Origin: an uncultured Alphaproteobacteria bacterium
GTDB lineage: Bacteria; Pseudomonadota; Alphaproteobacteria; Rhodobacterales; Rhodobacteraceae
Assembly: GCA_902625475.1 (NCBI GenBank)
Contig: CACOBR010000005.1
Coordinates: 9,738 to 73,737 of the forward strand
Direction of reading: 5' to 3'
Length of the DNA: 64,000 bases
Of this stretch, positions 8,231 through 60,213 are shown in pieces; positions within the stretch are counted from its first letter, which is position 1, and each line of letters opens with the position of its first letter. The translations under genes were made by a program, and so were the position numbers. The notes beneath the pieces were generated by a model, which was given only the letters and a program-made list of their open reading frames with translations, was not told the DNA's origin and ran no database searches.

Positions 8231-8644
8231 ATGAAACTTTATTCTGAAAAAATATTAAAGCTTGCAACAGAAATACCTCATGTTGGAAAACTTTATAACG
8301 CAGAAAAAGAAATTAGTCTCAGAACTCCAATATGCGGTTCGAAGGTATCAATATATATCAATTTTGAAAATGGTATTATTAAAGAATATATGCAAGAAAT
8401 CAAAGCATGCGCTTTAGGCCAAGCTTCAGCCTCTATATTTGGATCAAATGCTATTGGTCAAAATTATACTTCTGTTACTAAATTATTTAACAGTGTAAAA
8501 AATATGCTTGAAAATAATGGAGATACACCTTTTAAACCCTTTGAGAAATATGAATTATTGAGACCAGCATATGAATTTAAAAATAGGCATGATTCCATAT
8601 TATTGGTTCTAGAAGCTGCTAAAAAAGCTTTCAAAATACATTAA
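8231..8644 (+). CDS. NifU/IscU-like N-terminal-domain Fe-S scaffold-like protein
   Basis: 137 aa. Cys-containing motifs (PICGSKV, IKACALGQASAS) match the NifU_N/SufU-like fold. The exact subfamily was not resolved. Confidence 0.7.
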   Translation: MKLYSEKILKLATEIPHVGKLYNAEKEISLRTPICGSKVSIYINFENGIIKEYMQEIKACALGQASASIFGSNAIGQNYTSVTKLFNSVKNMLENNGDTPFKPFEKYELLRPAYEFKNRHDSILLVLEAAKKAFKIH

Positions 8645-8651
8645 AAAAATT

Positions 8652-8846
8652 TTAAAAATTTTGAAATATGAAAAATATCAAATAATTTATTATAAAAATA
8701 AAAATACTGTAAGCTGAACCAAATAAAACTAGTTTGAGAAGGTTTAAAAAATAATTAAACATACCGGCATAAAGTTTTGTTCTTGTTTTGTTCTTTAATA
8801 ACTTACATTCTTTTTTAGAGACTGCAAGTATTTTATCCTGTTTCAA
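8652..8846 (-). CDS. Possible small membrane protein (64 aa), uncertain
   Basis: This ORF fills an otherwise long 188-nt convergent spacer. It has a basic N-terminus and a hydrophobic C-terminal segment (LVLFGSAYSIFIFIINYLIFFIF). It overlaps the recG stop by 14 nt. I see no recognisable family and it could be spurious. Confidence 0.25.
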   Translation of the reverse strand: MKQDKILAVSKKECKLLKNKTRTKLYAGMFNYFLNLLKLVLFGSAYSIFIFIINYLIFFIFQNF

Positions 8847-10926
8847 GAAGTGACAGCGACTTATCTCTATTCATCAGATGTAAAAGAATTCTTATATTTT
8901 CACCATCTTTAGATTTAAGATTTTTATTATTTTTTATAATTTCACTTGCATCCTCGTGTGCATAATAAAGTAAATCTTTGTCAAATTCTAAATTTGCAAT
9001 TTTAAACTTTGGGATACCTGATTGCTGTGGTCCAATAGGATTTCCTCCACCACGCATTAATAAATCTTTTTCTGCAATATCAAATCCATTATCAAATTTT
9101 CTTAAGACCTCCAACCTTTCTTTACCTTGATCGCTGACATTTTTTGAGTAGATTAAAATACAATTTGATTTTTTTTCTCCCCTACCGACTCTTCCCCTTA
9201 ATTGGTGTAACTGTGCTAATCCAAACCTTTCTGCAGCTTCAATTATTATTACATTTGCATTGGGCACATCTATTCCTACTTCAATTACTGTTGTTGCCAA
9301 AAGAATTTGAATACTTCCAGCCATGAATGACGTCATTATGTAACTTTTTTGCTCCTCTGACATTTTACCATGCAAAGTTTCAATTTTGATATTTGGAAGA
9401 AATTTATTGAGTATAGAAAGTCTTTTTTCAATTGCTACCAATTCAGATTTTTCACCATCTTCTATTAATGGGCATACCCAATATGCCTGTGCTCCATTAT
9501 TACAAATTTCAAATAATCTAGAAATAAGTTTGTCTATTTTTTTTTCAGAAATAATAGATGTGTCTATTTTTTTTCTATTTAATGGTTTATCAATTATTTT
9601 CGAAATATCCATATCTCCATAGTTTGCAAGTTCTAATGTTCTTGGAATTGGAGTAGCTGTCATTACCAATATATCTAAATTTTCACCTTTTTGTATAAGG
9701 TCGTGGCGTTGTTTTACACCAAACTTATGTTGTTCATCGATAATAACCAATTCAAGTTTTTTAAACAGAACCCCTTTTTGGAAAAGTGCGTGAGTACCAA
9801 TGATTAAATCTGCTTTACCTGATTTAATGATTTCTAGAGTTTCTTTTTTCTCTTTAGTTTTCATTTTACCTGTTAATAAAACAGTATTAATTCCAGCATC
9901 TTTTGTATATTGAAGAAAATTAAAAAAATGTTGATTAGCTAATATGTCAGTGGGAACCATTAAGGCGGATTGACCTCTATTTTCAGCAACTAATATCATT
10001 GCAAATAATGCAACTAATGTTTTACCCGAACCGACATCTCCTTGGATCAATCTGTACATTCTATCAGTTTTCGATAGATCAGATTGAATTTCAGCAATAC
10101 ATAATTCTTGAGATTTTGTTAAAGAAAAGGGTAATTTCTTCCTAATCAAAGTGGAAATTCTATGAGTTGAAATTCTTCTTTTTTTTTTATTTTTTTTTGA
10201 GAAATTTCTTGCTATTAACAAACTCAGTTGATGACTTAATAGCTCATCATAAGCTAGTCTTAATCTAAAATTAGAGTTTAGAGATATGTCATTTATTGTT
10301 TTTGGAGCATGTATTCTTTTTAAACTACTGGCATGATCTGTCCAATTCATAGCGTTGAGTCTTTTTTTACAAACCCATTCATATGAATTAATTGATTTTG
10401 GTAATAATTGAAGAATTTGATTCACACAATTAAAAAATACTTTTTGAGATATGCCTTTTGTTAGAGAATAAATAGGTTCAATTTCTGGAATTTTATCTAA
10501 ATCATTTATTGTCTCTATGTAATCAGGATGAATAATTTGAAAATTATCCATATATTTTTGTAATTTTCCTGATACAAATCGTTCTTGATTAATAGGTAAA
10601 TTTCTTTTGATCCAATCATTTTTTGCATTAAAAAAAATTAAATTTATTTTATTAAATCCATCGGTTACTTCGATACTAATTGGTCCTTTAAAATTTTTAA
10701 AATTATGCTTAATTACTCTTATCTTTAAAATGACTGTTTCATTTTCATTAAAATCATTAACTATTTCTAGATGTTTTCTAATTTTTAAACTTGTGGGAAA
10801 AGAATACAGAAAATCTAAAGGTTTAAATATGCCCAGTTTATGTAAATTGAAAATTGATTTTGAGCCAATTCCTTTTAAATTTTCTAATTTCCCAAATAAT
10901 GGAAATAAAAGATGAGGTCTAAACAT
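8833..10926 (-). CDS. recG: ATP-dependent DNA helicase RecG
   Basis: 697 aa. It has an N-terminal wedge domain and helicase motifs GDVGSGKT (I), DEQHKFGV (II) and QLRGRVGRG (VI). Confidence 0.95.
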   Translation of the reverse strand: MFRPHLLFPLFGKLENLKGIGSKSIFNLHKLGIFKPLDFLYSFPTSLKIRKHLEIVNDFNENETVILKIRVIKHNFKNFKGPISIEVTDGFNKINLIFFNAKNDWIKRNLPINQERFVSGKLQKYMDNFQIIHPDYIETINDLDKIPEIEPIYSLTKGISQKVFFNCVNQILQLLPKSINSYEWVCKKRLNAMNWTDHASSLKRIHAPKTINDISLNSNFRLRLAYDELLSHQLSLLIARNFSKKNKKKRRISTHRISTLIRKKLPFSLTKSQELCIAEIQSDLSKTDRMYRLIQGDVGSGKTLVALFAMILVAENRGQSALMVPTDILANQHFFNFLQYTKDAGINTVLLTGKMKTKEKKETLEIIKSGKADLIIGTHALFQKGVLFKKLELVIIDEQHKFGVKQRHDLIQKGENLDILVMTATPIPRTLELANYGDMDISKIIDKPLNRKKIDTSIISEKKIDKLISRLFEICNNGAQAYWVCPLIEDGEKSELVAIEKRLSILNKFLPNIKIETLHGKMSEEQKSYIMTSFMAGSIQILLATTVIEVGIDVPNANVIIIEAAERFGLAQLHQLRGRVGRGEKKSNCILIYSKNVSDQGKERLEVLRKFDNGFDIAEKDLLMRGGGNPIGPQQSGIPKFKIANLEFDKDLLYYAHEDASEIIKNNKNLKSKDGENIRILLHLMNRDKSLSLLETG

Positions 10927-10967
10927 TTATAAAAAGCTTCCTAATGAAATATCTACAATAAAAGGAA

Positions 10968-13109
<2,142 letters not shown>

Positions 13110-13115
13110 TTAAAC

Positions 13116-13130
13116 ATTGCAAATTGCAAT
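13116..13130. promoter_or_regulatory. Inverted repeat ATTGCAA-A-TTGCAAT in the divergent ligA/mnmA spacer
   Basis: Read directly from the sequence: perfect 7-bp arms around one central base. It is short and AT-rich, so chance is plausible. Confidence 0.15.
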
Positions 13131-13217
13131 AATTGATTTAATTAACAATTCAATATGTGATTTATATTATAATATTTTATTTTCTATAACTTTTACTTTA
13201 TAACATTTTTTTTAATT

Positions 13218-14336
13218 ATGAATTCATTAGGAATAAATAAAGAACCAAAAAATACAAGAGTGGTTGTTGCAATGTCTGGTGGTGTTGATAGTTCTGTGGT
13301 AGCAGCAAAATTAAAAGCAGAAGGATATGATGTTATCGGAATTACAATGCAATTATATTCTGGTAATGTATCTAATTATAAACCTGGCAAATGTTGTGGA
13401 GGTGTGGATATAAACGATGCTATCAAAGTCTCAAGAGACTTTGATTTTCCTCATTATGTATTTGATTATGAAGACGAATTTAAAAAAAATGTCATTGACG
13501 ATTTTACAAATTCTTATGTTAATGGACTTACTCCTGTTCCATGTATACGTTGTAATGAAACTGTAAAGTTTTCAAATCTTCTCGATGCAGCTAGAAATTT
13601 AAATGCAGACTGCATGGCTACAGGTCATTATGTAAGAAGAAAATTAGGCTTGAATGGTATTGAGTTACATACTGCACTTGATAATAAAAAGGACCAAAGT
13701 TATTTCTTATTTGCGACTACACTTAAACAGTTGGAATTTTTGAGATTTCCACTTGGGGATTACAAATCAAAAGAAACAACTAGATCTTTAGCCGAAAATC
13801 TAGGTCTTAAAGTTGCTAACAAACCTGATAGCCAAGATATTTGTTTTATTACAAAAGGTAAATATTTTGATTTTATACAAAATACAACAAGTGAGTATAT
13901 AAAAGAAGGACCAATATATGACAAAGAAGGACAAAAATTAGGTACACATAAAGGTATCGTAAATTATACAATAGGCCAAAGAAAAGGTTTAGGCATATCT
14001 TCAACTCGTCCTCTTTACGTTACTAAAATTGATGTTAAATCAAACTCAATAATTGTTGGTTATAAATCTGATCTGGTTGGAGAAAAGTTTAAAATTAATA
14101 ATATAAATTGGTTAGGTCATGAAAATTTTAATGATTGCCCTAAAAATGGTTTTTTAGTAGATGTAAAAGTTAGATCAACAAGACCACCTAAAAGTGCTGA
14201 AATATATCCTTTAGATAAAAAAAATGGATTAGTTACTTTAAAGGACCACGAAGAAGCAATTGCACCAGGTCAAGCCTGCGTATTTTATGAACAAAATTCT
14301 TCAAGAGTACTAGGTGGAGGATGGATTACTAATTAA
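13218..14336 (+). CDS. mnmA: tRNA 2-thiouridine(34) synthase MnmA
   Basis: 372 aa. It has the PP-loop VVVAMSGGVDSSV, a catalytic Cys region (PCIRCN) and KDQSYFL. Confidence 0.95.
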   Translation: MNSLGINKEPKNTRVVVAMSGGVDSSVVAAKLKAEGYDVIGITMQLYSGNVSNYKPGKCCGGVDINDAIKVSRDFDFPHYVFDYEDEFKKNVIDDFTNSYVNGLTPVPCIRCNETVKFSNLLDAARNLNADCMATGHYVRRKLGLNGIELHTALDNKKDQSYFLFATTLKQLEFLRFPLGDYKSKETTRSLAENLGLKVANKPDSQDICFITKGKYFDFIQNTTSEYIKEGPIYDKEGQKLGTHKGIVNYTIGQRKGLGISSTRPLYVTKIDVKSNSIIVGYKSDLVGEKFKINNINWLGHENFNDCPKNGFLVDVKVRSTRPPKSAEIYPLDKKNGLVTLKDHEEAIAPGQACVFYEQNSSRVLGGGWITN

Positions 14337-14356
14337 TTAAATAAAGGTTAACAGAA

Positions 14357-15133
14357 ATGTTATTAGTTATATCACCAGCAAAAAAATTAGATTTTTCACC
14401 AGTAGAAATCGAAAATAACTTATCGAAGCCTCTTTTTCAAAAAGACGCTACAAATTTAGCTAATGTAGCATCAAAATTAAGTAAATTGGAGTTAAAACAA
14501 TTAATGTCAATTTCTGATAAATTAGCTGATTTAAATTTTCAAAGATTCCAAAGTTTTAAAAATAATCCAACTGAAATATCTACTAAAGCTGCAGCATTTG
14601 CTTTTAACGGTGATACTTACATAGGGTTGAATATAATGGAATTCTCTAAATTAGATTTAGATTTTTCTCAAAAACACTTAAGAATTTTGTCTGGTTTATA
14701 TGGTTTACTTCGCCCCCTCGATTTAATTCAACCATATAGGCTTGAAATGGGAAGTAACTTAAAAAATAATAGAGGCCATAATTTATACCAATATTGGAGT
14801 GATATTGTTTCAAACAACCTAAATTTGGATCTTGAAAAATCTAAATATAAAAAAATTATAAATTTAGCATCCGTTGAGTATTCAAAAGTTATAAACACTA
14901 AAATAATAAGGGCCGATATTATTAACCCCCAATTTTTAGAAGAAAAAAATAATACTTTAAAAAATATTAGTTTTTTTTCTAAGAAAGCTAGAGGTAGTAT
15001 GGCTAGATTTATATTAAAAAATAAAATACTAAATCACTCTGAAATTAAGGATTTTAATTATGATCGCTATAAATTTAACCCTTCTTTATCTTCTGAATTG
15101 AAGCCTATATTCACAAGAAAATCATTATCTTAA
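14357..15133 (+). CDS. yaaA: YaaA-family (UPF0246/DUF328) peroxide-stress protein
   Basis: 258 aa. The N-terminus MLLVISPAKKLDF and the motif LRILSGLYGLLRPLD are characteristic of the YaaA family. Confidence 0.85.
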   Translation: MLLVISPAKKLDFSPVEIENNLSKPLFQKDATNLANVASKLSKLELKQLMSISDKLADLNFQRFQSFKNNPTEISTKAAAFAFNGDTYIGLNIMEFSKLDLDFSQKHLRILSGLYGLLRPLDLIQPYRLEMGSNLKNNRGHNLYQYWSDIVSNNLNLDLEKSKYKKIINLASVEYSKVINTKIIRADIINPQFLEEKNNTLKNISFFSKKARGSMARFILKNKILNHSEIKDFNYDRYKFNPSLSSELKPIFTRKSLS

Positions 15134-15152
15134 AAAGAATAGTTAATTAAAA

Positions 15153-16529
15153 ATGAATTTAGAAAAAACTTTAAAAAGGTTGGACCAAACAAGGGATGAG
15201 TCTGTATCCAGACTATCTGAACTTCTTAAGTTCAAATCGATATCTACGAATAGTAAATACAAGATTGATTGTATTTCTACAGCGAAATGGCTTGTAAATG
15301 AACTTAATAATATAGGTTTTAATGCTTCATTAAGAGAAACTACAGGAAATCCTATGGTTGTTGCTCACACTACCAAATCAAAAGGAGACTTTTTATTTTA
15401 TGGACATTATGATGTTCAACCTGTTGATCCTTTGAAAGAATGGGAGGATGATCCCTTTGAACCTAAAATTAAATCAATTTCAGGTGAGAAAGTTATTGTG
15501 GCTAGAGGAGCATCTGATGATAAAGGACAACTCATGACCTTTATTGAAGCGTGTAGAGCAATAAATTATGTAAATAATTCATTTCCTATTAACTTATCCA
15601 TTCTTCTAGAAGGAGAAGAAGAAACATCATCTCCTTCTCTTGTTCCATTTCTTAAAAAGAATACCTCTGAGTTAAAGTGTAAATATGCTTTAGTATGTGA
15701 TACTGGTATGTGGGATAAAAAAACTCCCTCTATTACCTGTTCTTTAAGAGGTATGTTATCTGAAGAGATTAGCATTAAAGGGCCTAATCGAGATTTACAT
15801 TCTGGCATTTATGGTGGAGCAGTTAACAACCCATTGAAAGTAATGTCTGATTTGTTATCTAGTTTACACGATAAAGATGGAAAAGTAGATATACCTTACT
15901 TTTACAATGGAGTAGATGCTGTTTCTAAAGAGTTAAAAAAAGAGTGGAAAAAACTTAGCTTCTCAGAAGAAACCTTTTTAAAAAATTTGGGAATGTCTAA
16001 ATCTTTTGGTGAGAAAAATTATTCATTACTAGAAAAATTATGGGGTAGACCTACCTGCGAAATTAATGGTATATGGGGCGGCTATATTGAAGAGGGATTC
16101 AAAACAGTTATTCCATCAGAGGCTCATGCCAAAATTTCATTTAGACTGGTGGGAGATCAAGACCCAGAGGAAATAAGGTTAAATTTTCGAAAAAAGCTGA
16201 TGAACGATTTACCAGTAGATTTTGAAATAAAATTCAGCAACCATAAAGGCTCTAAAGCAACTCAATTCCCACTTAATGATGAAATTATAAATAAAGCTCA
16301 AAAAGCCCTTTCAGACGAATGGAACGCTAAAACCATATTCGAAGGAGGTGGCGGTTCCATACCAATAGTACAACACTTTAAGAATATATTAGATATGGAT
16401 ACCTTACTTGTAGGATTTGCCCTTGATGACGATAATATCCATTCTCCTAATGAAAAATATAATCTCAAAAGCTTCTACAAAGGTGCACGAAGCTGGGTTA
16501 GAATAATTGATGAAATTGCTAAAAACTAA
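15153..16529 (+). CDS. M20-family metallopeptidase (dipeptidase-like)
   Basis: 458 aa. It has M20 metal/catalytic motifs (GHYDVQPVD, RGASDDKGQ, EGEEE) and the dimerisation-domain length typical of M20 dipeptidases. Confidence 0.85.
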   Translation: MNLEKTLKRLDQTRDESVSRLSELLKFKSISTNSKYKIDCISTAKWLVNELNNIGFNASLRETTGNPMVVAHTTKSKGDFLFYGHYDVQPVDPLKEWEDDPFEPKIKSISGEKVIVARGASDDKGQLMTFIEACRAINYVNNSFPINLSILLEGEEETSSPSLVPFLKKNTSELKCKYALVCDTGMWDKKTPSITCSLRGMLSEEISIKGPNRDLHSGIYGGAVNNPLKVMSDLLSSLHDKDGKVDIPYFYNGVDAVSKELKKEWKKLSFSEETFLKNLGMSKSFGEKNYSLLEKLWGRPTCEINGIWGGYIEEGFKTVIPSEAHAKISFRLVGDQDPEEIRLNFRKKLMNDLPVDFEIKFSNHKGSKATQFPLNDEIINKAQKALSDEWNAKTIFEGGGGSIPIVQHFKNILDMDTLLVGFALDDDNIHSPNEKYNLKSFYKGARSWVRIIDEIAKN

Positions 16530-31430: not shown

Positions 31431-32378
31431 TTATGCGTCAAAATCAAATCCTTCATCATAATTCTTACTTTGATCAGGTGATAATTTATATGTTTCAGTT
31501 CTTAAAAATTGCATTAAATCATCTGCATTATCTTTAAATTTATTAATATCTTTAGTATCAAAAGCTTTACCAATAACAACCGAAACTTTATCGTTTGTTC
31601 TTTTACCAAATTCGTTGATAAGAAGTGCCATTCTTAAATTATAATGTAAATGGCTCGCAATTTGAAAAATACGACTATTACTTCCTTTAAAGTATATAGG
31701 AATAACTTTAGCTCCTGATTTAGCTATTAATCTTGCTGTAAACTTTCTCCAACTTGGATCCATTGCTTTTCCGAATGGTTTTAAGGAAGTAGAAACAGTT
31801 CCTCCTGGAAAAATACCAACACATCCACCATTAATTAAATAATTTATAGCTTTTTTTCGTGTTTCTATATTTTTAGAAATGCCTTCTCTTGTCTCGTCAA
31901 AATTTATAGGTAAAATAATATCATCAAGATCTTTAGCTTTTTTAAAAATTCTATGCGCTAAAATTCTAAAATCTTTTCTTGTAGTTGATAATATATGGCC
32001 TAATAACAAACCATCTAAAATTCCATATGGATGGTTTGCCACTACAACCACTGGACCTTTTTTTGGTATATTATCAAGCGATCCATCCAATATATTTAGA
32101 CTAATTTTATACTTTTCAAGTATTACTTCCCAAAAATCTCTTCCTAGAGCTACTTCATTTTCATAATTCTTTGCTTTCTTAATAAGACGAAGTCTTCCAG
32201 TCATATTTTCAATCGACCTAATAACTGCCCTTCCTGCTTTACTTTTTGCAGAACTTGCATACGAAATATCTCTGGCTACTTCTTTTTTCACTTCAAAACC
32301 TATAATTAAAAAAAGACTTGATAATAATATTATATTTAAATGATAACCAAATTTATAATAATAGATTAAAATATTCAA
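31431..32378 (-). CDS. Lysophospholipid (PlsC-family) acyltransferase
   Basis: 315 aa. It has an N-terminal TM segment, the HX4D motif (ANHPYGILDG) and FPGGTVS (motif III/IV). This is the type often paired with OlsB-like N-acyltransferases. Confidence 0.8.
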   Translation of the reverse strand: MNILIYYYKFGYHLNIILLSSLFLIIGFEVKKEVARDISYASSAKSKAGRAVIRSIENMTGRLRLIKKAKNYENEVALGRDFWEVILEKYKISLNILDGSLDNIPKKGPVVVVANHPYGILDGLLLGHILSTTRKDFRILAHRIFKKAKDLDDIILPINFDETREGISKNIETRKKAINYLINGGCVGIFPGGTVSTSLKPFGKAMDPSWRKFTARLIAKSGAKVIPIYFKGSNSRIFQIASHLHYNLRMALLINEFGKRTNDKVSVVIGKAFDTKDINKFKDNADDLMQFLRTETYKLSPDQSKNYDEGFDFDA

Positions 32379-45762: not shown

Positions 45763-46233
45763 CTAATTATTGCTATAGTTTGGAGATTCATTTGTTATCC
45801 TTACGTCATTTACATGACTTTCAGACAAACCAGATCCTGTAATTTTAATAAACTTACAGTCTTTCTTCAGTAGTTTTATATTTTCATTACCAGTGTAACC
45901 CATTAAAGCCTTTAACCCACCAACTAATTGATAATTAATTTTATTTAATGAACCTTTGTATGGAATCTGTCCCTCTATTCCTTCAGGTATAAGTTTATCA
46001 GCTTGTATATCTTTTTGAAAATATCTATCAGCAGATCCCCAAGCCATAGCACCTATAGAACCCATTCCTCTGTAGTTTTTAAAACTCCTTCCTTGGTATA
46101 AAGTTATTTCTACAGGAGACTCATCTGTACCTGCTAATAAGGAGCCAAACATCGCACAAGAGGCACCAGAAGCTATTGATTTTGAAAGTACAAGTAGAAC
46201 ATCATCAAAAGTTATAGCATTTTCTAATTCCAT
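45763..46233 (-). pseudogene. guaB: Internally deleted IMP dehydrogenase (guaB) remnant, in-frame 156-aa ORF
   Basis: Residues 1-15 ([15 protein letters not shown]) are the conserved GuaB N-terminus. Residue ~17 onward ([47 protein letters not shown]...[13 protein letters not shown]...[17 protein letters not shown]) aligns with the last ~140 residues of E. coli GuaB. The CBS pair, most of the TIM barrel and the catalytic-Cys loop (GSICTT-type) are absent. The junction is at about 46186-46191. Confidence 0.75.
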
Positions 46234-48143: not shown

Positions 48144-48349
48144 TATAATCCTCTCAAAAATAGTGATAGCTTTTATCGGCTGAAACTATTTGTTTTTTTT
48201 ATGATAATATAAACTATCTCGATTAACAACTTTTAATACTTATTTTAATCAATGTCGGAATATTATTTCAAGCAGTCGATTTTATGTTATCTAAATTTTA
48301 GAATAACCTATTTATTCAAATAAATGAGATAACTGAATTGGAATTTTAG

Positions 48350-49297
48350 ATGACAAAAACAATAGTAGAAAGTTCATCAAAAACAGTAACTATTGGACTG
48401 GACGAACCATTTTGCATAATAGGTGAAAGAATTAATCCGACCGGAAGAAAAAAATTAGCTTTAGAGTTGGAGGATGGAAATTTTGAAACTGTTATTAGAG
48501 ATGCATTAGAACAAGTAAAATCAGGTGCTAATATTTTAGATATTAATGCTGGGGTTGTTTATAATTCTAATCCTAACCCTAACGAAACTGAACCAGTTTT
48601 GATGAAAAAGTTATTAGAAGTTGTACAAGATTTAGTAGATGTTCCATTATGTATAGATAGTTCAGTCCCAAGTGCTCTAGAAGAAGGTTTAAAAACGGCA
48701 AAGGGCAGACCTTTGTTAAATTCTGTTACAGGAGAGGAAGAAAGATTAGAAAGTATTTTGCCTCTTGTAAAAAAATATAATGTACCAGTAGTAGCAATAT
48801 CCAACGATGATACAGGTATATCAGAAGACCCCAAAATTAGATTTAAAGTAGCAAAAAAAATAGTTGAAAGAGCCTCCGATTTTGGAATACCGTCAAACGA
48901 TATCATAGTTGATCCACTAGTAATGCCAATTGGTGCGATGCCAACGGCTGGACAGCAAGTATTTGAATTAGTAAAGAAATTAAAAGAAGAACTGAAGGTT
49001 AATACTACCTGCGGAGCTTCTAATATTTCTTTTGGTTTACCAAATAGACATTCCATAAATTCAACATTTCTTCCTATGGCGATTGCTTCTGGTATGTCGA
49101 GTGCAATAATGAATCCTACGAATCCAGACGAATTAAACGCGATTTATGCTGCTAACCTACTAATGAATAGAGATAAAAATGGTTTTAATTGGATAAAAAG
49201 AAACAGAGTTACTACTCAAAAAAATAACATTGAGCAAAATAAAGATGAAAATCAAGAGGGTAATAGAATTAGACGGAGAAATAGAAGAAGATCATAA
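48350..49297 (+). CDS. Pterin-binding (MetH/AcsE/MtrH-type) methyltetrahydrofolate methyltransferase domain protein with Arg-rich C-terminal tail
   Basis: 315 aa. It aligns motif by motif with the MetH pterin-binding barrel: IIGERINPTGRKK, ANILDINAG, PLCIDSS, LLNSV, IIVDPLV, CGASNISFGLP, MNP. It ends in a low-complexity basic tail (NRIRRRNRRRS). Confidence 0.8.
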   Translation: MTKTIVESSSKTVTIGLDEPFCIIGERINPTGRKKLALELEDGNFETVIRDALEQVKSGANILDINAGVVYNSNPNPNETEPVLMKKLLEVVQDLVDVPLCIDSSVPSALEEGLKTAKGRPLLNSVTGEEERLESILPLVKKYNVPVVAISNDDTGISEDPKIRFKVAKKIVERASDFGIPSNDIIVDPLVMPIGAMPTAGQQVFELVKKLKEELKVNTTCGASNISFGLPNRHSINSTFLPMAIASGMSSAIMNPTNPDELNAIYAANLLMNRDKNGFNWIKRNRVTTQKNNIEQNKDENQEGNRIRRRNRRRS

Positions 49298-49332
49298 TGA
49301 GGTAAATTTCTAGATAATTTTATTGGCAAGAG

Positions 49333-51369
49333 ATGGTTTCAAAGATAAATAATTCAGTTTCAATATCTTCAGAAAAAAATCACTCAGTAGTTTTCACTCC
49401 GTCTGGGCTGAGGGGTATTGTTAAAAGTGGGGTAAGTGTATTAGACGCTGCTAGGCAATTAGGAGTTGATTTAGACAGTGTATGTGGTGGTAGAGGAATA
49501 TGTACAAAATGTAAGGTTAAACCATCTTTTGGTAATTTTTCCAAATTTGATATAATAGCTGAAGAAAATAATTTAAGTAATTTCACAGAAATTGAAAAAA
49601 AATCAAAAGAAAAAAATAGAATTGCTTTTAATGAGAGACTTGGATGCCAAGCTAAAATTACAGGTGATATTATCATTGATATCCCTGAAGAAAGCCAGGT
49701 TCATAAACAAGTTATTAGAAAAAGAATTGAACTTAAAGATATAGACATTCACCCTACAACTCAACTTTATTATGTCGAAGTTGAGGAACCTGATATGCAT
49801 AATCCATCAGGAGACCTTCAAAGATTGAACGATTCACTAAATAAGCAATGGGGTATTTTGAACACAAAAATTTGCTTAAAAGTTTTAAAAAACCTTCAAT
49901 ACAATTTACGTAAAGGAAAATGGTGTGTGACATGTGCTATTTTCAAAGAAACTAATGAAATAATTAATATATGGCCTGGTTTTTTAGATTCTAATCTTTA
50001 TGGAATTGCTATAGATTTAGGATCAACTACTATTGCAGCTCATATTTGTGACTTAAGCACGGGTGAAATAATTAATTCGTCAGGTATAATGAATCCTCAA
50101 ATAAGATTTGGTGAAGATCTTATGAGTAGAGTGAGTTTTTCAATGATGAATGAAGATGGCACAGAAAAACTTAAGGATGCAGTACAAGAAACACTTAACC
50201 AGCTATGCAAAACGTTGATCAAAGGAAGCAAGATTGATCAGAAACTTGTAGTAGAACTTTCGATTGTATGTAATCCAGTTATGCATCATTTACTGCTTGG
50301 AATAAATCCTATAGAACTAGGCCAGGCTCCTTTTGCATTAGCTACTTCCAATTCACTTTATTTCAAAAGCGAGGAATTAGGACTTAATTGTTTGCAGAAT
50401 GCAACCATTTTTATTTTGCCATGTATTGCTGGACATGTTGGAGCAGATGCTGCAGCTGTTGTATTATCAGAAGCCCCAAATGAATCTAAAGAAACTGTTC
50501 TTATTATTGACGTTGGTACTAATGCTGAACTTATATTGGGAAATAAATATGAATTATACGCTTGTTCATCTCCAACCGGACCTGCATTTGAAGGTGCTCA
50601 AATATCATCTGGTCAAAGAGCAGCTCCAGGAGCTATTGAAAAAGTAAAAATTGATCCAAACACAAAAAATCCAATTTTTAAGGTTATAGGAAGTGATTAT
50701 TGGTCAGATGAAGTAGAATTTCAAAATTTTATAAAAAATCAACCAATTACAGGCATTTGTGGATCTGGAATTATTGAAGCAATTGCAGAGATGAGAATTA
50801 ATGGCATATTAGATAAATCGGGATTGATTGGATCAAGTATAGAAACTGGTTCAAAACGAAGTATTATTGATGGGAGGACCTATAGTTATTTGTTATATGA
50901 GGACAAAAATAATAAAGAAAATAAAATAAAAATTACAAATGCAGATGTCAGAGCAATACAATTAGCAAAAGCAGCACTTTTTGCAGGATCTAAATTATTA
51001 ATGGATGAGATGAAAATTAAAAAAGTTGATAAAATAGTTTTAGCTGGAGCATTTGGTGCACATATATCAACAAAACACGCTATGATACTAGGTATGATAC
51101 CAGATTGTAACTTAAAAAATGTAATATCAGCTGGTAATGCCGCTGGAGCAGGTGCAATAATAGCACTTTTAAACAAAAACTCTCGATCAAAAATTACTAA
51201 AATTGTAAAAAAAATTAACAAAATTGAGACTGCAATGGCTCCAAAATTTCAAGAATATTTTGTTTCTGCATCGGGTATACCAAACTCGATGTTTTCTTTT
51301 CCAGAACTTGATAAAGTCGTAAAATTACCTGAAGTTAATTTTAACAAAAAGAAACGATTGAGAAAATAA
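49333..51369 (+). CDS. RACo/RamA-like corrinoid reductive activase ([2Fe-2S] ferredoxin domain + ASKHA/DUF4445 ATPase domain)
   Basis: 678 aa. It has an N-terminal plant-type ferredoxin Cys pattern (CGGRGICTKCKV ... LGCQAKI). The C-terminal half carries ASKHA phosphate-1 and phosphate-2 motifs (GIAIDLGSTTIAAH, LIIDVGTNAELIL) and GICGSGIIEAI. It lies 35 nt downstream of the pterin-binding gene. Confidence 0.8.
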   Translation: MVSKINNSVSISSEKNHSVVFTPSGLRGIVKSGVSVLDAARQLGVDLDSVCGGRGICTKCKVKPSFGNFSKFDIIAEENNLSNFTEIEKKSKEKNRIAFNERLGCQAKITGDIIIDIPEESQVHKQVIRKRIELKDIDIHPTTQLYYVEVEEPDMHNPSGDLQRLNDSLNKQWGILNTKICLKVLKNLQYNLRKGKWCVTCAIFKETNEIINIWPGFLDSNLYGIAIDLGSTTIAAHICDLSTGEIINSSGIMNPQIRFGEDLMSRVSFSMMNEDGTEKLKDAVQETLNQLCKTLIKGSKIDQKLVVELSIVCNPVMHHLLLGINPIELGQAPFALATSNSLYFKSEELGLNCLQNATIFILPCIAGHVGADAAAVVLSEAPNESKETVLIIDVGTNAELILGNKYELYACSSPTGPAFEGAQISSGQRAAPGAIEKVKIDPNTKNPIFKVIGSDYWSDEVEFQNFIKNQPITGICGSGIIEAIAEMRINGILDKSGLIGSSIETGSKRSIIDGRTYSYLLYEDKNNKENKIKITNADVRAIQLAKAALFAGSKLLMDEMKIKKVDKIVLAGAFGAHISTKHAMILGMIPDCNLKNVISAGNAAGAGAIIALLNKNSRSKITKIVKKINKIETAMAPKFQEYFVSASGIPNSMFSFPELDKVVKLPEVNFNKKKRLRK

Positions 51370-51435: not shown

Positions 51436-51840
51436 TTGATTAAGACATTCAGATTAATATATAAGTCTATACCTTTTGGATATGATCAAAATATATTAAA
51501 TGGAATATTATCTGACGCAATAAACTATAATAAAAAAAATAATATCACTGGTGCTTTAGTTTGTAGAGATGATATTTATTTACAACTACTTGAGGGTCCA
51601 GAGCAAGCAGTAAATTATACTTACCAAAAAATATTAGATGACGACAGACACTTAGAAGTTGAACTTTTAATTAAGGAGCATTGTAATAAAAGAATTTTTC
51701 CGAAATGGAATATGAAGCATGATCCTGCTAAAACCTGGTTTTGGAATAAGGAAGAAGTAAGATCAGGAGTTTTTACAACTTTAAGTAAAAGTAAAATAAT
51801 AGCAGTTTTTGAAAAAATCGCTAAGGAAATAAACAACTAG
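51436..51840 (+). CDS. Stand-alone BLUF-domain blue-light (FAD) photoreceptor
   Basis: 134 aa. The BLUF signature has all photocycle residues in register with AppA/PixD-type BLUF: Tyr in FRLIYKS, ITGALV, Gln in YLQLLEG, DDRH, and the W-x-M pair in FPKWNMK. It has a TTG start with AAGGGA 8-10 nt upstream. Confidence 0.85.
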   Translation: MIKTFRLIYKSIPFGYDQNILNGILSDAINYNKKNNITGALVCRDDIYLQLLEGPEQAVNYTYQKILDDDRHLEVELLIKEHCNKRIFPKWNMKHDPAKTWFWNKEEVRSGVFTTLSKSKIIAVFEKIAKEINN

Positions 51841-52003: not shown

Positions 52004-52732
52004 ATGGATATAAATTCTAAATTAAAATTAAAGATTAAATCTAATAGAAAAGCTATTTTCGAATTAGATGCAAAAATTGAAGAAAATAGATCTAAAATTG
52101 AAGAATTAAGGTCTTCGTCAGAAAGAGATAATGCTTCAATAGCTAGAAATTACACTGCTGCATTTTATGGGAATCATCATTTAACTAATAGAAATACAGA
52201 AGAAATTTTTAAAAATAGAATAGCCATTCTCAATAATATGGAAGTTGAGGGCGAGATTGAAGTAAGTTTTAGAGAAACAATGATTAATATGGCAAATATT
52301 GATTATTTCTCTCATAGGGCAGAAGTTAATCAAGAAATAATTGATATCAATCAAAAATTATCCGAAATAAATTCTTTACTTATTGAAATAAACAGAGCAA
52401 TCATGGCAAGAAATGAAAAATCAGTAAAATTTAATAGAAAAAATTTAGATATAAACAAAAAATTTTTAGATGGTGAATTTCACCCTTCAAAAGCTACCTT
52501 AACAGCAAATAATAAAAGATCTAAAGATAATGAAGAAAGATGTTTAAAGCTATCTAAAGCTGCTGACAGAAATAAAAATAAAATTGAAAAATTAAAAAAA
52601 CTAGGACAGGAAAATGCTGCTAATGTCTTAAAAAACTCAATTGAAATTTCAAAGAGAAGAAGTCAAATTACAGAAAATCAAGAAGAAGTAATATCTGACC
52701 AAAAACTCATTGCAAGTACAATTTTTAATTAG
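52004..52732 (+). CDS. Hypothetical coiled-coil protein (orphan)
   Basis: 242 aa, very K/E/N-rich with heptad-like stretches at both ends. It has no TM or signal segment and no motif I recognise. It is flanked by 163-nt and 109-nt spacers, so it probably has its own promoter. Confidence 0.55.
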   Translation: MDINSKLKLKIKSNRKAIFELDAKIEENRSKIEELRSSSERDNASIARNYTAAFYGNHHLTNRNTEEIFKNRIAILNNMEVEGEIEVSFRETMINMANIDYFSHRAEVNQEIIDINQKLSEINSLLIEINRAIMARNEKSVKFNRKNLDINKKFLDGEFHPSKATLTANNKRSKDNEERCLKLSKAADRNKNKIEKLKKLGQENAANVLKNSIEISKRRSQITENQEEVISDQKLIASTIFN

Positions 52733-52841: not shown

Positions 52842-53567
52842 ATGTCTTATGTTTTAAAGACTGCTGAAAATACAAATGACATAAAATTATCTCAATTATT
52901 TAGAAGCAAAATTTTTAGAAAGTCAAAAAGTATATGTGATAATGATGAATTAGATCAAAGATGTATCCATTATCTAATTTTTGATAAATTCAATTCTTAC
53001 AAATTAGTATGTGTTTTTCGTGTTTACCTTATACATAATACTAATCAACTTTGTAATTCCTATTCCCATAAGTTTTACAAACTTAATAATTTAAAAAAAA
53101 TCCAGGATCCAATGCTTGAACTAGGTAGATTTTGTGTTGATCCAAATTATAGAGATCCAAAAATTATCATGACTGCATGGTCTGCAATCAGAAAACTAGT
53201 TGAAAAAAATAAGATTAAATTTCTTTTTGGATGTTCAAGTTTTATTGGTACTAGTATAGATAGATATTTGGATTGTTTTAAATTTTTGAAAACAAAATAT
53301 ATAGCACCAAAAAAATATAATCTTTATGTAAAGGCACCTAAAGTTTTTGAATTTGATAATCTTATAAATTTAAACAATTTTTGCCTTAAAAAAGCGAAAA
53401 AAAATCTTCCCCCTCTTCTTTCCTTCTATTTGAATTTAGGTGGTTGGGTGTCTGATCATGTTGTCATTGATTACGATTTAGGAACTATGCATGTATTTAC
53501 CGGGTTAGAAGTTAAAGAAATACCAGAAAAAAGACTTAATTTCTTAAAAAAAATAAATTTAAATTGA
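52842..53567 (+). CDS. olsB: OlsB-like (hemolysin-like GNAT) amino-acid N-acyltransferase for aminolipid synthesis
   Basis: 241 aa. The pattern RSKIF....D.DELDQRCIHYLIFD, LELGRFCVDPNYR, LFGCSSF, LPPLLSFYLNLGGWV matches the OlsB/GlsB-type acyl-ACP:amino acid N-acyltransferase family as I remember it. Confidence 0.7.
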   Translation: MSYVLKTAENTNDIKLSQLFRSKIFRKSKSICDNDELDQRCIHYLIFDKFNSYKLVCVFRVYLIHNTNQLCNSYSHKFYKLNNLKKIQDPMLELGRFCVDPNYRDPKIIMTAWSAIRKLVEKNKIKFLFGCSSFIGTSIDRYLDCFKFLKTKYIAPKKYNLYVKAPKVFEFDNLINLNNFCLKKAKKNLPPLLSFYLNLGGWVSDHVVIDYDLGTMHVFTGLEVKEIPEKRLNFLKKINLN

Positions 53568-58866: not shown

Positions 58867-60213
58867 TTGATCAAAATGAATAAGTATTTTAGAGATAACC
58901 GAAAAATAAATCCAACAGAGATTAATCTTAAATTAGAATCAGAAAATAATGAAAATAAAATAGAAATAGGTCCTACCAAACTAGCAATTTCAGAATGGGA
59001 GAAATTAGATTTAGAACTTCCTAACTTAAGTAAAATGAGAGCTTACAGATGGAATAGGCTAGTTGAGCATATTAATGAAAGAGAATATGCAGGTTTATTA
59101 CTATTTGATCCTCTGAATATTAGATATGCCACAGATAGTACTAATATGCAAATCTGGAATATGCATAACCCCTTTCGTGCAGTTCTAGTGTGTGCAGATG
59201 GTTATATGGTAATATGGGATTATAAAAATTCACCTTTTTTAAGTAAATTCAATCCATTAGTCAAAGAACAACGGCATGGTGCTGATTTATTTTATTTTGC
59301 AAGAGGCGATAAATCAAATTTGGCAGCTAATAAATTTTCTAATGAAATTAGAGTATTATTATCTGATCACTCAGGAAATAATAAAAGGCTAGCAGTGGAC
59401 AAAATTATGGTAAATGGATTAAAAGCACTAGAGGCGCAAGGTTTTGAAATTAAAGAAGGTGAAGAACTTACAGAAAAAGCACGTTCAATTAAAGGTCATG
59501 ATGAGATTTTAGCTATGAGATGTGCTTCTGCTGCATGTGAAAATAGTGTTTATCTAATGGAACAATTTGCTAGAAATAATGTCCCAAAAGAACAAGTGAG
59601 TGAGGATGAAATTTGGGCAATTTTACATGCTGAGAATATAAAAAGAGGTGGTGAATGGATAGAAACTAGATTACTAGCCTCAGGGCCTAGAACTAACCCT
59701 TGGTTTCAGGAATGCGGACCAAGAATACCTAAAAATAACGAAATTATTGCATTTGATACTGATTTAGTCGGGAGTTATGGCATTTGTGTAGATATAAGTA
59801 GGACATGGTGGATTGGAGACAAAAAACCAAGGACTGATATGATTTATGCCATGAACCACGGTCTTCAACATATTATGACTAATATGGAGATGTTAAAACC
59901 TGGGGTTTCAATGGAAGAATTAACTCATAAAGCACATATACTTGATCCTATTTATCAAAAAGGAAAGTATGGGGTTCTAATGCATGGAGTTGGTTTATGT
60001 GATGAATGGCCTTCTATAACTTATCCAGATGGATTTGTAGAAGGAGCATATAATTATCCTCTAGAAGAAGGTATGGTTCTTTGCGTTGAAGCTTTAGTAA
60101 GTCCAGAAAACGGTGATTTTTCCATAAAATTAGAAGATCAAGTACTAATAACATCAGATGGTTATGAAAATTTAACAAAATATCCATTTGATGATAGACT
60201 ATTGGGAAATTAA
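58867..60213 (+). CDS. dddP: DddP-like DMSP lyase (M24 metallopeptidase/creatinase fold)
   Basis: 448 aa from the TTG; the ATG at 58876 (MNKYFRD...) is likely the true start. It has a pita-bread fold with the ligand set D-x-D (AFDTDL), D ten residues later (CVDIS), H (LMHGVG), E (CVEAL) and E (KLEDQ). It also has W (MQIWN), Y (WDYK), Y (GKYGV) and D (LCDEW). From the TTG start these sit at a constant +2 offset from the residue numbers I recall for the Ruegeria lacuscaerulensis DddP structure. That comparison is from memory and needs an alignment. Confidence 0.72.
   Translation: MIKMNKYFRDNRKINPTEINLKLESENNENKIEIGPTKLAISEWEKLDLELPNLSKMRAYRWNRLVEHINEREYAGLLLFDPLNIRYATDSTNMQIWNMHNPFRAVLVCADGYMVIWDYKNSPFLSKFNPLVKEQRHGADLFYFARGDKSNLAANKFSNEIRVLLSDHSGNNKRLAVDKIMVNGLKALEAQGFEIKEGEELTEKARSIKGHDEILAMRCASAACENSVYLMEQFARNNVPKEQVSEDEIWAILHAENIKRGGEWIETRLLASGPRTNPWFQECGPRIPKNNEIIAFDTDLVGSYGICVDISRTWWIGDKKPRTDMIYAMNHGLQHIMTNMEMLKPGVSMEELTHKAHILDPIYQKGKYGVLMHGVGLCDEWPSITYPDGFVEGAYNYPLEEGMVLCVEALVSPENGDFSIKLEDQVLITSDGYENLTKYPFDDRLLGN

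Follow-up and report, generated by a model that had tools for sequence, protein, structure and literature searches.

A probable MtgD and RamA-like module pair of a cobalamin-dependent split methyltransferase in a very AT-rich lineage of Rhodobacterales

Fitness profiling has shown that methionine synthesis in Phaeobacter inhibens relies on a B12-dependent synthase split into three parts, a homocysteine (Hcy) module (PGA1_c13370), a pterin module (PGA1_c16040) and a corrinoid protein (PGA1_c13350) (Price 2018, PMC5764234). A ferredoxin+DUF4445 "RamA-like" protein (PGA1_c15200) and a DUF1638 protein are also required, for B12 reactivation, and all of these components are needed for methionine prototrophy (PMC5764234). 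Mutants of Ruegeria pomeroyi in mtgC and in mtgD require methionine and are unable to use glycine betaine; MtgC and MtgD serve methionine synthesis and, with the MttB-family protein MtgB, glycine-betaine demethylation (Mausz 2025, PMC12478193). Here we analyzed a stretch of 64,000 nucleotides (nt) of contig CACOBR010000005.1, hereafter the window, in which two adjacent genes, mtgD (48350-49297) and a ramA-like gene (49333-51369), very probably encode the MtgD and RamA-like modules of a cobalamin-dependent split methyltransferase of Rhodobacterales.

Other properties of the R. pomeroyi system bear on this comparison. RamA and the DUF1638 protein are induced on N-osmolytes, and the protein most induced under these conditions is the product of metF2, the proposed oxidizer of methyl-tetrahydrofolate (methyl-H4folate) derived from demethylation (PMC12478193). 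The genes of the system are dispersed in roseobacters and clustered in other bacteria, SPO1863 (MtgD) adjoins SPO1862, and streamlined roseobacter single-cell genomes carry MtgC and often MtgB2 and MetF2 (Dataset S2, PMC12478193). Proteobacterial MtgC has an origin separate from that of the Desulfitobacterium hafniense system (PMC12478193). The anaerobic MtgB/MtgC/MtgA glycine-betaine system of D. hafniense includes the closest solved relative of the window MtgD, MtgA (4O0Q/4O1E/4O1F; about 40 % identity), whose reaction is methyl transfer from methyl-corrinoid to tetrahydrofolate (THF; literature cited in PMC12478193). Unlike the window protein, however, this MtgA belongs to an anaerobic Firmicute system.

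The first-pass annotation of the window had described two co-directional open reading frames (ORFs) separated by 35 nt, and the ORF map confirms them on the plus strand. Its domain assignments are also correct (PF00809/PRK07535 for the first protein, Fer2 and RACo domains for the second). The product of mtgD (315 aa) is a stand-alone pterin-binding module of the methyl-H4folate:corrinoid methyltransferase type. It matches Pfam Pterin_bind (PF00809, E 7e-30), which together with an overlapping CdhD match makes up its whole domain content, and its score with the NCBIfam model PRK07535 ([quoted passage not shown]) is 393.6 bits, above the cut-off of 259. Among solved structures it is closest to MtgA of D. 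hafniense (4O0Q, E 3e-43, residues 21-284), followed by the folate domain of Thermotoga maritima MetH (1Q7M, E 1e-39) and then by MeTr. Residues D103, N124, D188 and N225, which we take to be the equivalents of D75, N96, D160 and N199 of MeTr, are invariant in 83/83 homologues and lie in the motifs CIDS, LNSV, VDPL and SNISFG.

The pterin-binding barrel of MtgD is homologous to that of classical MetH (Escherichia coli, T. maritima, human MTR). However, MetH carries Hcy, folate, B12 and S-adenosylmethionine (AdoMet)-reactivation domains on one polypeptide, whereas the window protein is the folate module alone. Accordingly, we rejected MtgD as a classical MetH: it is a single module that scores far under the MetH cut-offs, with 148 bits against 1011 for TIGR02082, which covers it via model positions 326-641 only, and 102 bits against 1497 for PRK09490. 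Reactivation differs as well, as MetH is reactivated through its AdoMet domain and the window system through a predicted ATP-dependent protein of the RACo type.

This second protein (678 aa) is a predicted ATP-dependent reductive activase of corrinoid proteins and shows the full RACo architecture, with Fer2 (E 2e-5), RACo_linker (PF17650, 1.5e-27), Raco_middle (PF17651, 2.6e-48) and RACo_C_ter (ASKHA; PF14574, 3e-84). The N-terminal [2Fe-2S] ferredoxin domain (Fer2 match) is encoded at 49387-49707 (about residues 19-125), and the RACo middle and ASKHA ATPase domains at 49999-51306 (about residues 223-658). The protein aligns end to end with RACo of Carboxydothermus hydrogenoformans (3ZYY; residues 17-658, E 9e-86). 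It shares with RACo (3ZYY, 4C1N) the four-part architecture, the [2Fe-2S] cysteines and the ASKHA motifs, but the substrate of RACo is CoFeSP of the acetyl-CoA pathway, and the window activase stays below the AcsV cut-off and has an extra basic C-terminal tail. Cys51, Cys57, Cys60 and Cys105 match the RACo cysteines and are invariant in 28/28 homologues, as are D228, D393 and G395; the phosphate-binding motifs are DLGSTT (228) and DVGTNAE (393), and GICGSG is found at 474.

We also considered the activase as archaeal RamA proper. Archaeal RamA has C-terminal ferredoxin-type [4Fe-4S] clusters and no N-terminal [2Fe-2S] cluster. The match to the corresponding model (TIGR04270) is limited to the ASKHA part (residues 223-645) and its score is below the cut-off, and we therefore rejected this assignment. 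"RamA-like" thus names the function of the window activase and not its family membership.

The loss of pterin-binding, Fe-S or ATP-binding residues for which the first-pass annotation had allowed is not seen on alignment, where all of them are intact (83/83 and 28/28 homologues). Estimated against relatives whose proteins are 95 %, 85 % and 80 % identical, dN/dS is 0.05-0.10 for mtgD and 0.10-0.15 for the activase, the same range as for alaS, ppx and recA. As the domains are complete, the key residues intact and both genes under purifying selection, we regard mtgD and the activase gene, on their sequences, as real and functional.

We then compared the gene order around mtgD with that of other genomes, using tblastn of the window neighbours against retrieved loci. 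The window mtgD lies on the ppx side, the same chromosomal context as in many Rhodobacteraceae, and the syntenic mtgD genes of this family are 72-81 % identical to it; the RamA-like genes downstream of them show 55-67 % identity to the window activase. In most high-GC Rhodobacteraceae loci (L003-L079), the space between ppx and mtgD is occupied by a PF13769 ("Virulence_fact") gene and, in divergent orientation, an MTHFR-like gene of the metF2 type. This PF13769-metF2-mtgD order matches the SPO1863-SPO1862 adjacency, which ties mtgD to the characterized gene. In other roseobacters we had expected metF2 between mtgD and ramA, but the intervening genes are unrelated (DUF6778, others) and metF2 is upstream instead.

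Like the window, R. pomeroyi (MtgD, SPO1863; RamA, SPO2041) and P. inhibens (PGA1_c16040 and PGA1_c15200) have a stand-alone pterin module and a ferredoxin+DUF4445 activase, with the same architecture and residues and no adjacent partner genes. In the window, however, the two genes are neighbours, whereas their counterparts in these two organisms are far apart by locus-tag numbering. The window also differs from most Rhodobacteraceae in having no PF13769 or metF2-like gene before mtgD and a G+C content of about 30 %.

In other genomes the pair is clustered with mtgC, DUF1638 and MTHFR genes. The Sinorhizobium meliloti cluster (CP090106.1) reads bmt...MttB-MtgC-DUF1638...PF13769-MTHFR-MtgD-small ORF-ASKHA protein. 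As in the window, MtgD (67 % identical) is followed on the same strand by a RamA-like gene (49 % identical). In this cluster, however, every module falls within 20 kb and a small ORF is placed between mtgD and the activase gene, whereas the window holds the pair only. A marine scaffold with 47 % GC (L101) carries mtgC-DUF1638-PF13769-DUF5981-MTHFR-Pterin_bind-RACo in one row, and in an Amaricoccus-like locus (L064) mtgC is 5.6 kb from mtgD.

If the window pair works like its characterized relatives, the TIM barrel of MtgD would move a methyl group between methyl-H4folate and the cobalt of the small corrinoid protein MtgC. In the activase, an electron would enter through the [2Fe-2S] cluster, and the ASKHA domain would use ATP to re-reduce inactive Co(II) on MtgC to Co(I). 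With the homocysteine module MtgE, MtgC and MtgD would form a methionine synthase; with the MttB-family MtgB, they would form a demethylase for glycine betaine (or another quaternary amine) that feeds methyl-H4folate. We infer the presence of the MtgC hub in the lineage, the direction or directions of methyl flow and the supply of B12. The first-pass annotation had offered a split methionine synthase with RamA-like reactivation and the THF-side half of an MttB-superfamily demethylation pathway as separate candidate roles. The former was shown genetically in P. inhibens (Price 2018, PMC5764234) and the latter for the same proteins in R. pomeroyi (Mausz 2025, PMC12478193). Each role is thus supported, but not as one of two alternatives, since MtgC and MtgD of R. 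pomeroyi serve both.

Several results weigh against the assignment of the window pair to this system. The activase falls under the curated cut-offs for AcsV (NF040756; 411 vs 800 bits) and for archaeal RamA (TIGR04270; 128.9 vs 500 bits), and the orthology of MtgD with SPO1863/PGA1_c16040 rests on synteny and literature description, not on direct alignment. Between ppx and mtgD, the window lineage has no PF13769-metF2 pair, and the searches for MtgC and its partners described below belong to the same side of the balance.

The missing metF2 would fit a system that runs in one direction, either for methionine synthesis only (MtgC, MtgD and MtgE) after loss of MttB-type demethylation, or the converse. 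The absence of a metF2-like gene from the locus speaks for such a loss, as metF2 of R. pomeroyi has a proposed role in oxidizing the methyl-H4folate from demethylation (PMC12478193). However, metF2 is possibly located elsewhere, the streamlined roseobacter single-cell genomes often retain MtgB2 and MetF2 (PMC12478193), and the window carries nothing that bears on MtgB or MtgE. We consider a one-direction system a real but rather unlikely possibility. The closest relatives of 37 % GC, two Rhodobacteraceae metagenome-assembled genomes (MAGs; L001 and L002), likewise lack the PF13769-metF2 pair, and the gap between ppx and mtgD is about 200-270 nt in both and in the window lineage.

To the first-pass annotation, neither the B12-binding protein nor the substrate-specific methyltransferase was encoded nearby, and our results agree. 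Inspection of the window ORFs by eye detected no gene for a B12-binding protein (PF02310/PF02607), an MttB-family protein (PF06253) or an Hcy methyltransferase (PF02574), and a scan of the window for the DxHxxG...SxL...GG motif found none. In syntenic Tara scaffolds and contigs, the 10 kb past the right end of the window contain no mtgC or partner gene either. Absence of neighbouring partners is expected, because the genes of this system are normally scattered in roseobacters. By analogy with Ruegeria and Phaeobacter, we infer that mtgC, DUF1638, mtgE and mtgB would be placed elsewhere in the genome of this organism.

A candidate site was provided by two contigs of 50 % and 70 % G+C (L099 and L100), where mtgC-DUF1638 stand beside mnmA-M20 or ligA-recG, with mtgE too in L099, in a gene order that resembles Rhodobacteraceae. 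The window has the corresponding row of recG, ligA, mnmA, yaaA and M20 genes (8231-16529; 8.8-16.5 kb), but no mtgC, mtgE or DUF1638 gene in it.

We further searched for an MtgC of the window lineage with two targeted probes. The first was a DNA probe, an AT-biased back-translation of GD[IV]HD[IV]GKN-39 codons-SAL[LMI]TTTMP[YF]M, scanned over metagenome contigs. It gave a single match (L086) and no roseobacter-type MtgC of 30 % GC. The match is a 38 % GC mtgC-DUF1638 fragment, ~60 % identical to roseobacter-type MtgC, and was rejected as a member of the window lineage. The same motif had no match in viral contigs, and a search with an Amaricoccus-like MtgC query returned only close high-GC relatives. 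The second probe was a synthetic AT-biased MtgC profile, in which the invariant columns came from 19 diverse sequences and the remaining ones were drawn with a substitution table leading from high to low GC. As a check, the same design was applied to MtgD, for which the window lineage ranks top given at least 30 diverse training sequences. With MtgC, 120 matches tied at about 315 bits and none of them fell on a long contig known from the lineage; such ties indicate that MtgC probes are insensitive for so conserved a protein.

Among the AT-rich or large-cluster matches followed up, those of 40-42 % GC (L097, L102-105) and the 47 % GC scaffold L101 were set aside. A Tara scaffold of 30 % GC (L098), a very AT-rich marine sequence, carries yciB-mtgC-PF13769-metF2-mtgD' in a row. 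Identity is only 35-38 % between its MetF2 and that of Rhodobacteraceae, and 61 % between its MtgD' and the window MtgD; we rejected it as belonging to another lineage.

These negative results could mean that genome reduction removed MtgC, MtgE and DUF1638 while MtgD and the activase were kept, to act with free cobalamin or with another corrinoid carrier, for example a B12 protein that is fused or unrelated. The empty recG/ligA/mnmA/M20 site, the absence of PF13769-metF2 beside mtgD and the failure of both targeted probes to recover a matching MtgC would fit such an orphan pair. Against it, the positions of the genes of this system vary widely among genomes, so absence of the hub at one site is weak evidence, and the MtgC probes are insensitive, as seen above. 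Moreover, dN/dS of 0.07-0.15 with all catalytic residues intact would be difficult to account for if there were no corrinoid substrate, and neither protein is known to have a role that does not involve a corrinoid partner. The oligo-Arg tail of MtgD is also retained at 30 % GC, and MtgC is kept in other streamlined roseobacter single-cell genomes. An orphan pair is thus improbable. The absence of the hub from a site that holds it in two other contigs is a small lead.

The first-pass annotation had placed the pair in a SAR11-type background, where B12-dependent enzymes are generally regarded as lacking, and a SAR11/Pelagibacterales genome with an acquired corrinoid module would run contrary to that view. 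The low G+C content of the window (29.6 %, below every species-representative locus retrieved) and a general streamlined look are all that points to it. We scanned one genome per species, and the 80 best loci all belong to Rhodobacteraceae/Paracoccaceae (66-81 % identity). The order icd-alaS-recA-rsmB-guaB-rlmE-ppx|mtgD-ramA-BLUF-(242 aa)-dctPQM is common to the window and to the Rhodobacteraceae MAGs L001 and L002, which have 37 % GC and share with it 89 % identity in RecA, 92 % in DctM and 80-81 % in MtgD. The window thus shares with Rhodobacteraceae MAGs a nine-gene synteny (icd to ramA) and protein identities of 65-92 %. The core rlmE-ppx|mtgD is also found in cultured Actibacterium, Nioella, Pseudooceanicola, Rhodovulum and others, where the RamA-like gene is usually 0-8 kb downstream of mtgD.

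The proteins point the same way. The window RecA is 80-89 % identical to that of Rhodobacteraceae/Paracoccaceae contigs, its 90 % cluster includes "RecA [Rhodobacterales bacterium]", and an MtgD at 86 % identity is annotated from a Rhodobacterales MAG. The window also encodes an equivalog of the DMSP lyase DddP (58867-60213, + strand; NF043017, 824 bits, cut-off 600), 7.5 kb downstream of ramA. Judged from synteny, identities and RecA cluster naming, the organism is a very AT-rich, pelagic, low-GC relative of the roseobacters and not SAR11, and its genome is probably streamlined; a SAR11 origin is extremely improbable. The apparent anomaly is thereby removed, as no SAR11 B12 module is implied. 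The best 120 database matches to MtgD are all 85-97 % identical to it, many of them from Tara and other marine assemblies, and one is located on a contig of 979 kb whose gene order is that of the window. With more than 120 protein clusters at 85-97 % identity, the window lineage is abundant.

A Wood-Ljungdahl AcsE/AcsV pair, or a non-corrinoid use of both folds (e.g. a DHPS-like pterin enzyme with a generic ASKHA ATPase), can practically be dismissed: AcsE-like and AcsV-like models are among those with the best NCBIfam E-values, but the proteins are far under the cut-offs (130 vs 370 bits for CODH_ACS_meth, the AcsE model NF040758; 411 vs 800 for AcsV; 27 vs 163 for DHPS), no CODH/ACS genes are found among the window ORFs, and the homologues cluster with MtgC, DUF1638, MttB and MTHFR genes, not with CODH/ACS.

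MtgD ends in a low-complexity linker and an oligo-Arg tail, ...NRIRRRNRRRS (49211-49294, residues ~288-315), which lies outside the region aligned to solved structures. This tail had been called unusual, but at least four Arg in the last 15 residues are found in 84/85 MtgD homologues from other genomes and in 120/120 proteins of the window lineage. The activase ends in a basic tail as well, ...NKKKRLRK (51337-51366), located beyond the end of the alignment with RACo 3ZYY, which has no basic C-terminal extension. At least four Arg/Lys occur in the last 15 residues of 28/30 RamA-like homologues, as oligo-Arg in high-GC genomes. In S. meliloti, MtgD, RamA and Bmt all bear Arg-rich tails.

We extended the survey to the partner proteins, with material from the window, L087, L099, L101, L094, L095 and proteins P0152-P0391. 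The two readable C-terminal tails of MtgE are basic (...PRRRRRRG and ...RERRRRA), and the N-termini of MtgB are Arg-rich (3/3). In the sequences inspected, a flexible linker joins the oligo-Arg or oligo-Lys tail to each of these hub partners. The first 20 residues of MtgC-type proteins (n=226), on the other hand, contain a median of eight Asp/Glu and no Arg/Lys. This pattern is unmentioned in Price 2018 and Mausz 2025, and a full-text literature search found no report of it. We tentatively propose a charge-complementary docking code, in which the basic tails on MtgD, MtgE, the activase and MtgB might pair with the acidic N-terminus of MtgC; on the sequence pattern we hold this to be possible, with the balance somewhat against it. 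The flexible linkers and basic tails would then stand in for the covalent inter-domain linkers of MetH, and alternative partners would be loosely held to, and compete for, one B12 carrier. That the MtgD tail is Arg-rich even at 30 % G+C would reflect selection for the tail. If true, the recurrence of oligo-Arg tails on the partners, set against acidic residues at the N-terminus of MtgC, would suggest a way in which the modules of a split B12 enzyme with several partners are kept together.

The system itself was already described (2018, 2025), and the window pair is an additional, very AT-rich case, so that the observation is for the most part an ordinary one. With it, a pelagic, roseobacter-like lineage that is abundant and extremely AT-rich joins the carriers of cobalamin-dependent MtgD/RamA machinery, which bears on the question of which organisms of the surface ocean consume glycine betaine and vitamin B12. 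With the surprise of a SAR11 background not supported, the remaining points of interest are the hub of this lineage and the tail pattern.

Divergent from mtgD, ppx lies on the minus strand, and the 206-nt gap between them (48144-48349 on the ORF map) presumably contains the mtgD promoter. A promoter scan of this gap was uninformative in such AT-rich DNA, and Rfam, at gathering thresholds and at E<=1, detected no riboswitch in it. No terminator-like site was found in the 35-nt spacer between mtgD and ramA (49298-49332), and the two genes are therefore probably in one transcript. The ORFs of at least 120 aa, surveyed by eye, comprise housekeeping genes, an ABC transporter, cytochrome c maturation genes and a TRAP transporter. 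Over the whole 64 kb, Rfam at gathering thresholds returned zero RNA families (no tRNA, rRNA or riboswitch, including cobalamin and SAM riboswitches; ARAGORN was not applied). An exact-protein look-up found no record identical to the window MtgD, SSB or GyrA.

Upstream of the pair, guaB (IMP dehydrogenase; 45763-46233, - strand) encodes 156 aa only. Aligned with an orthologue of 485 aa (L082), it shows 79-82 % identity over its first 15 and its last 141 residues. About 328 residues in between, comprising the catalytic barrel and the CBS pair, are absent without a change of frame, and the junction shows an "AKS/SKS" microhomology. The short guaB reflects either a genuine deletion or an artefact of assembly or amplification.

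Downstream, a gene for a BLUF blue-light sensor (51436-51840, + strand) starts 66 nt past the activase gene. The ramA-BLUF adjacency is kept in L001, L002 and L081-L083 and was not detected downstream of ramA in higher-GC Rhodobacteraceae loci. The next gene (52004-52732, + strand) encodes a coiled-coil-looking protein of 242 aa that falls in no family of Pfam or NCBIfam; its identity to the proteins of relatives is 80-98 %, and its dN/dS of 0.05-0.07 indicates that it is more constrained than its neighbours. Further along, the DddP gene is followed by those for an HD-domain protein and an esterase. An OlsB-like ornithine N-acyltransferase gene (52842-53567, + strand) scores under the curated cut-offs (117 vs 350 bits), and an ORF at 31431-32378 (- strand) looks, from its sequence alone, like a hemolysin/acyltransferase. 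Together, these two genes would suggest aminolipid synthesis.

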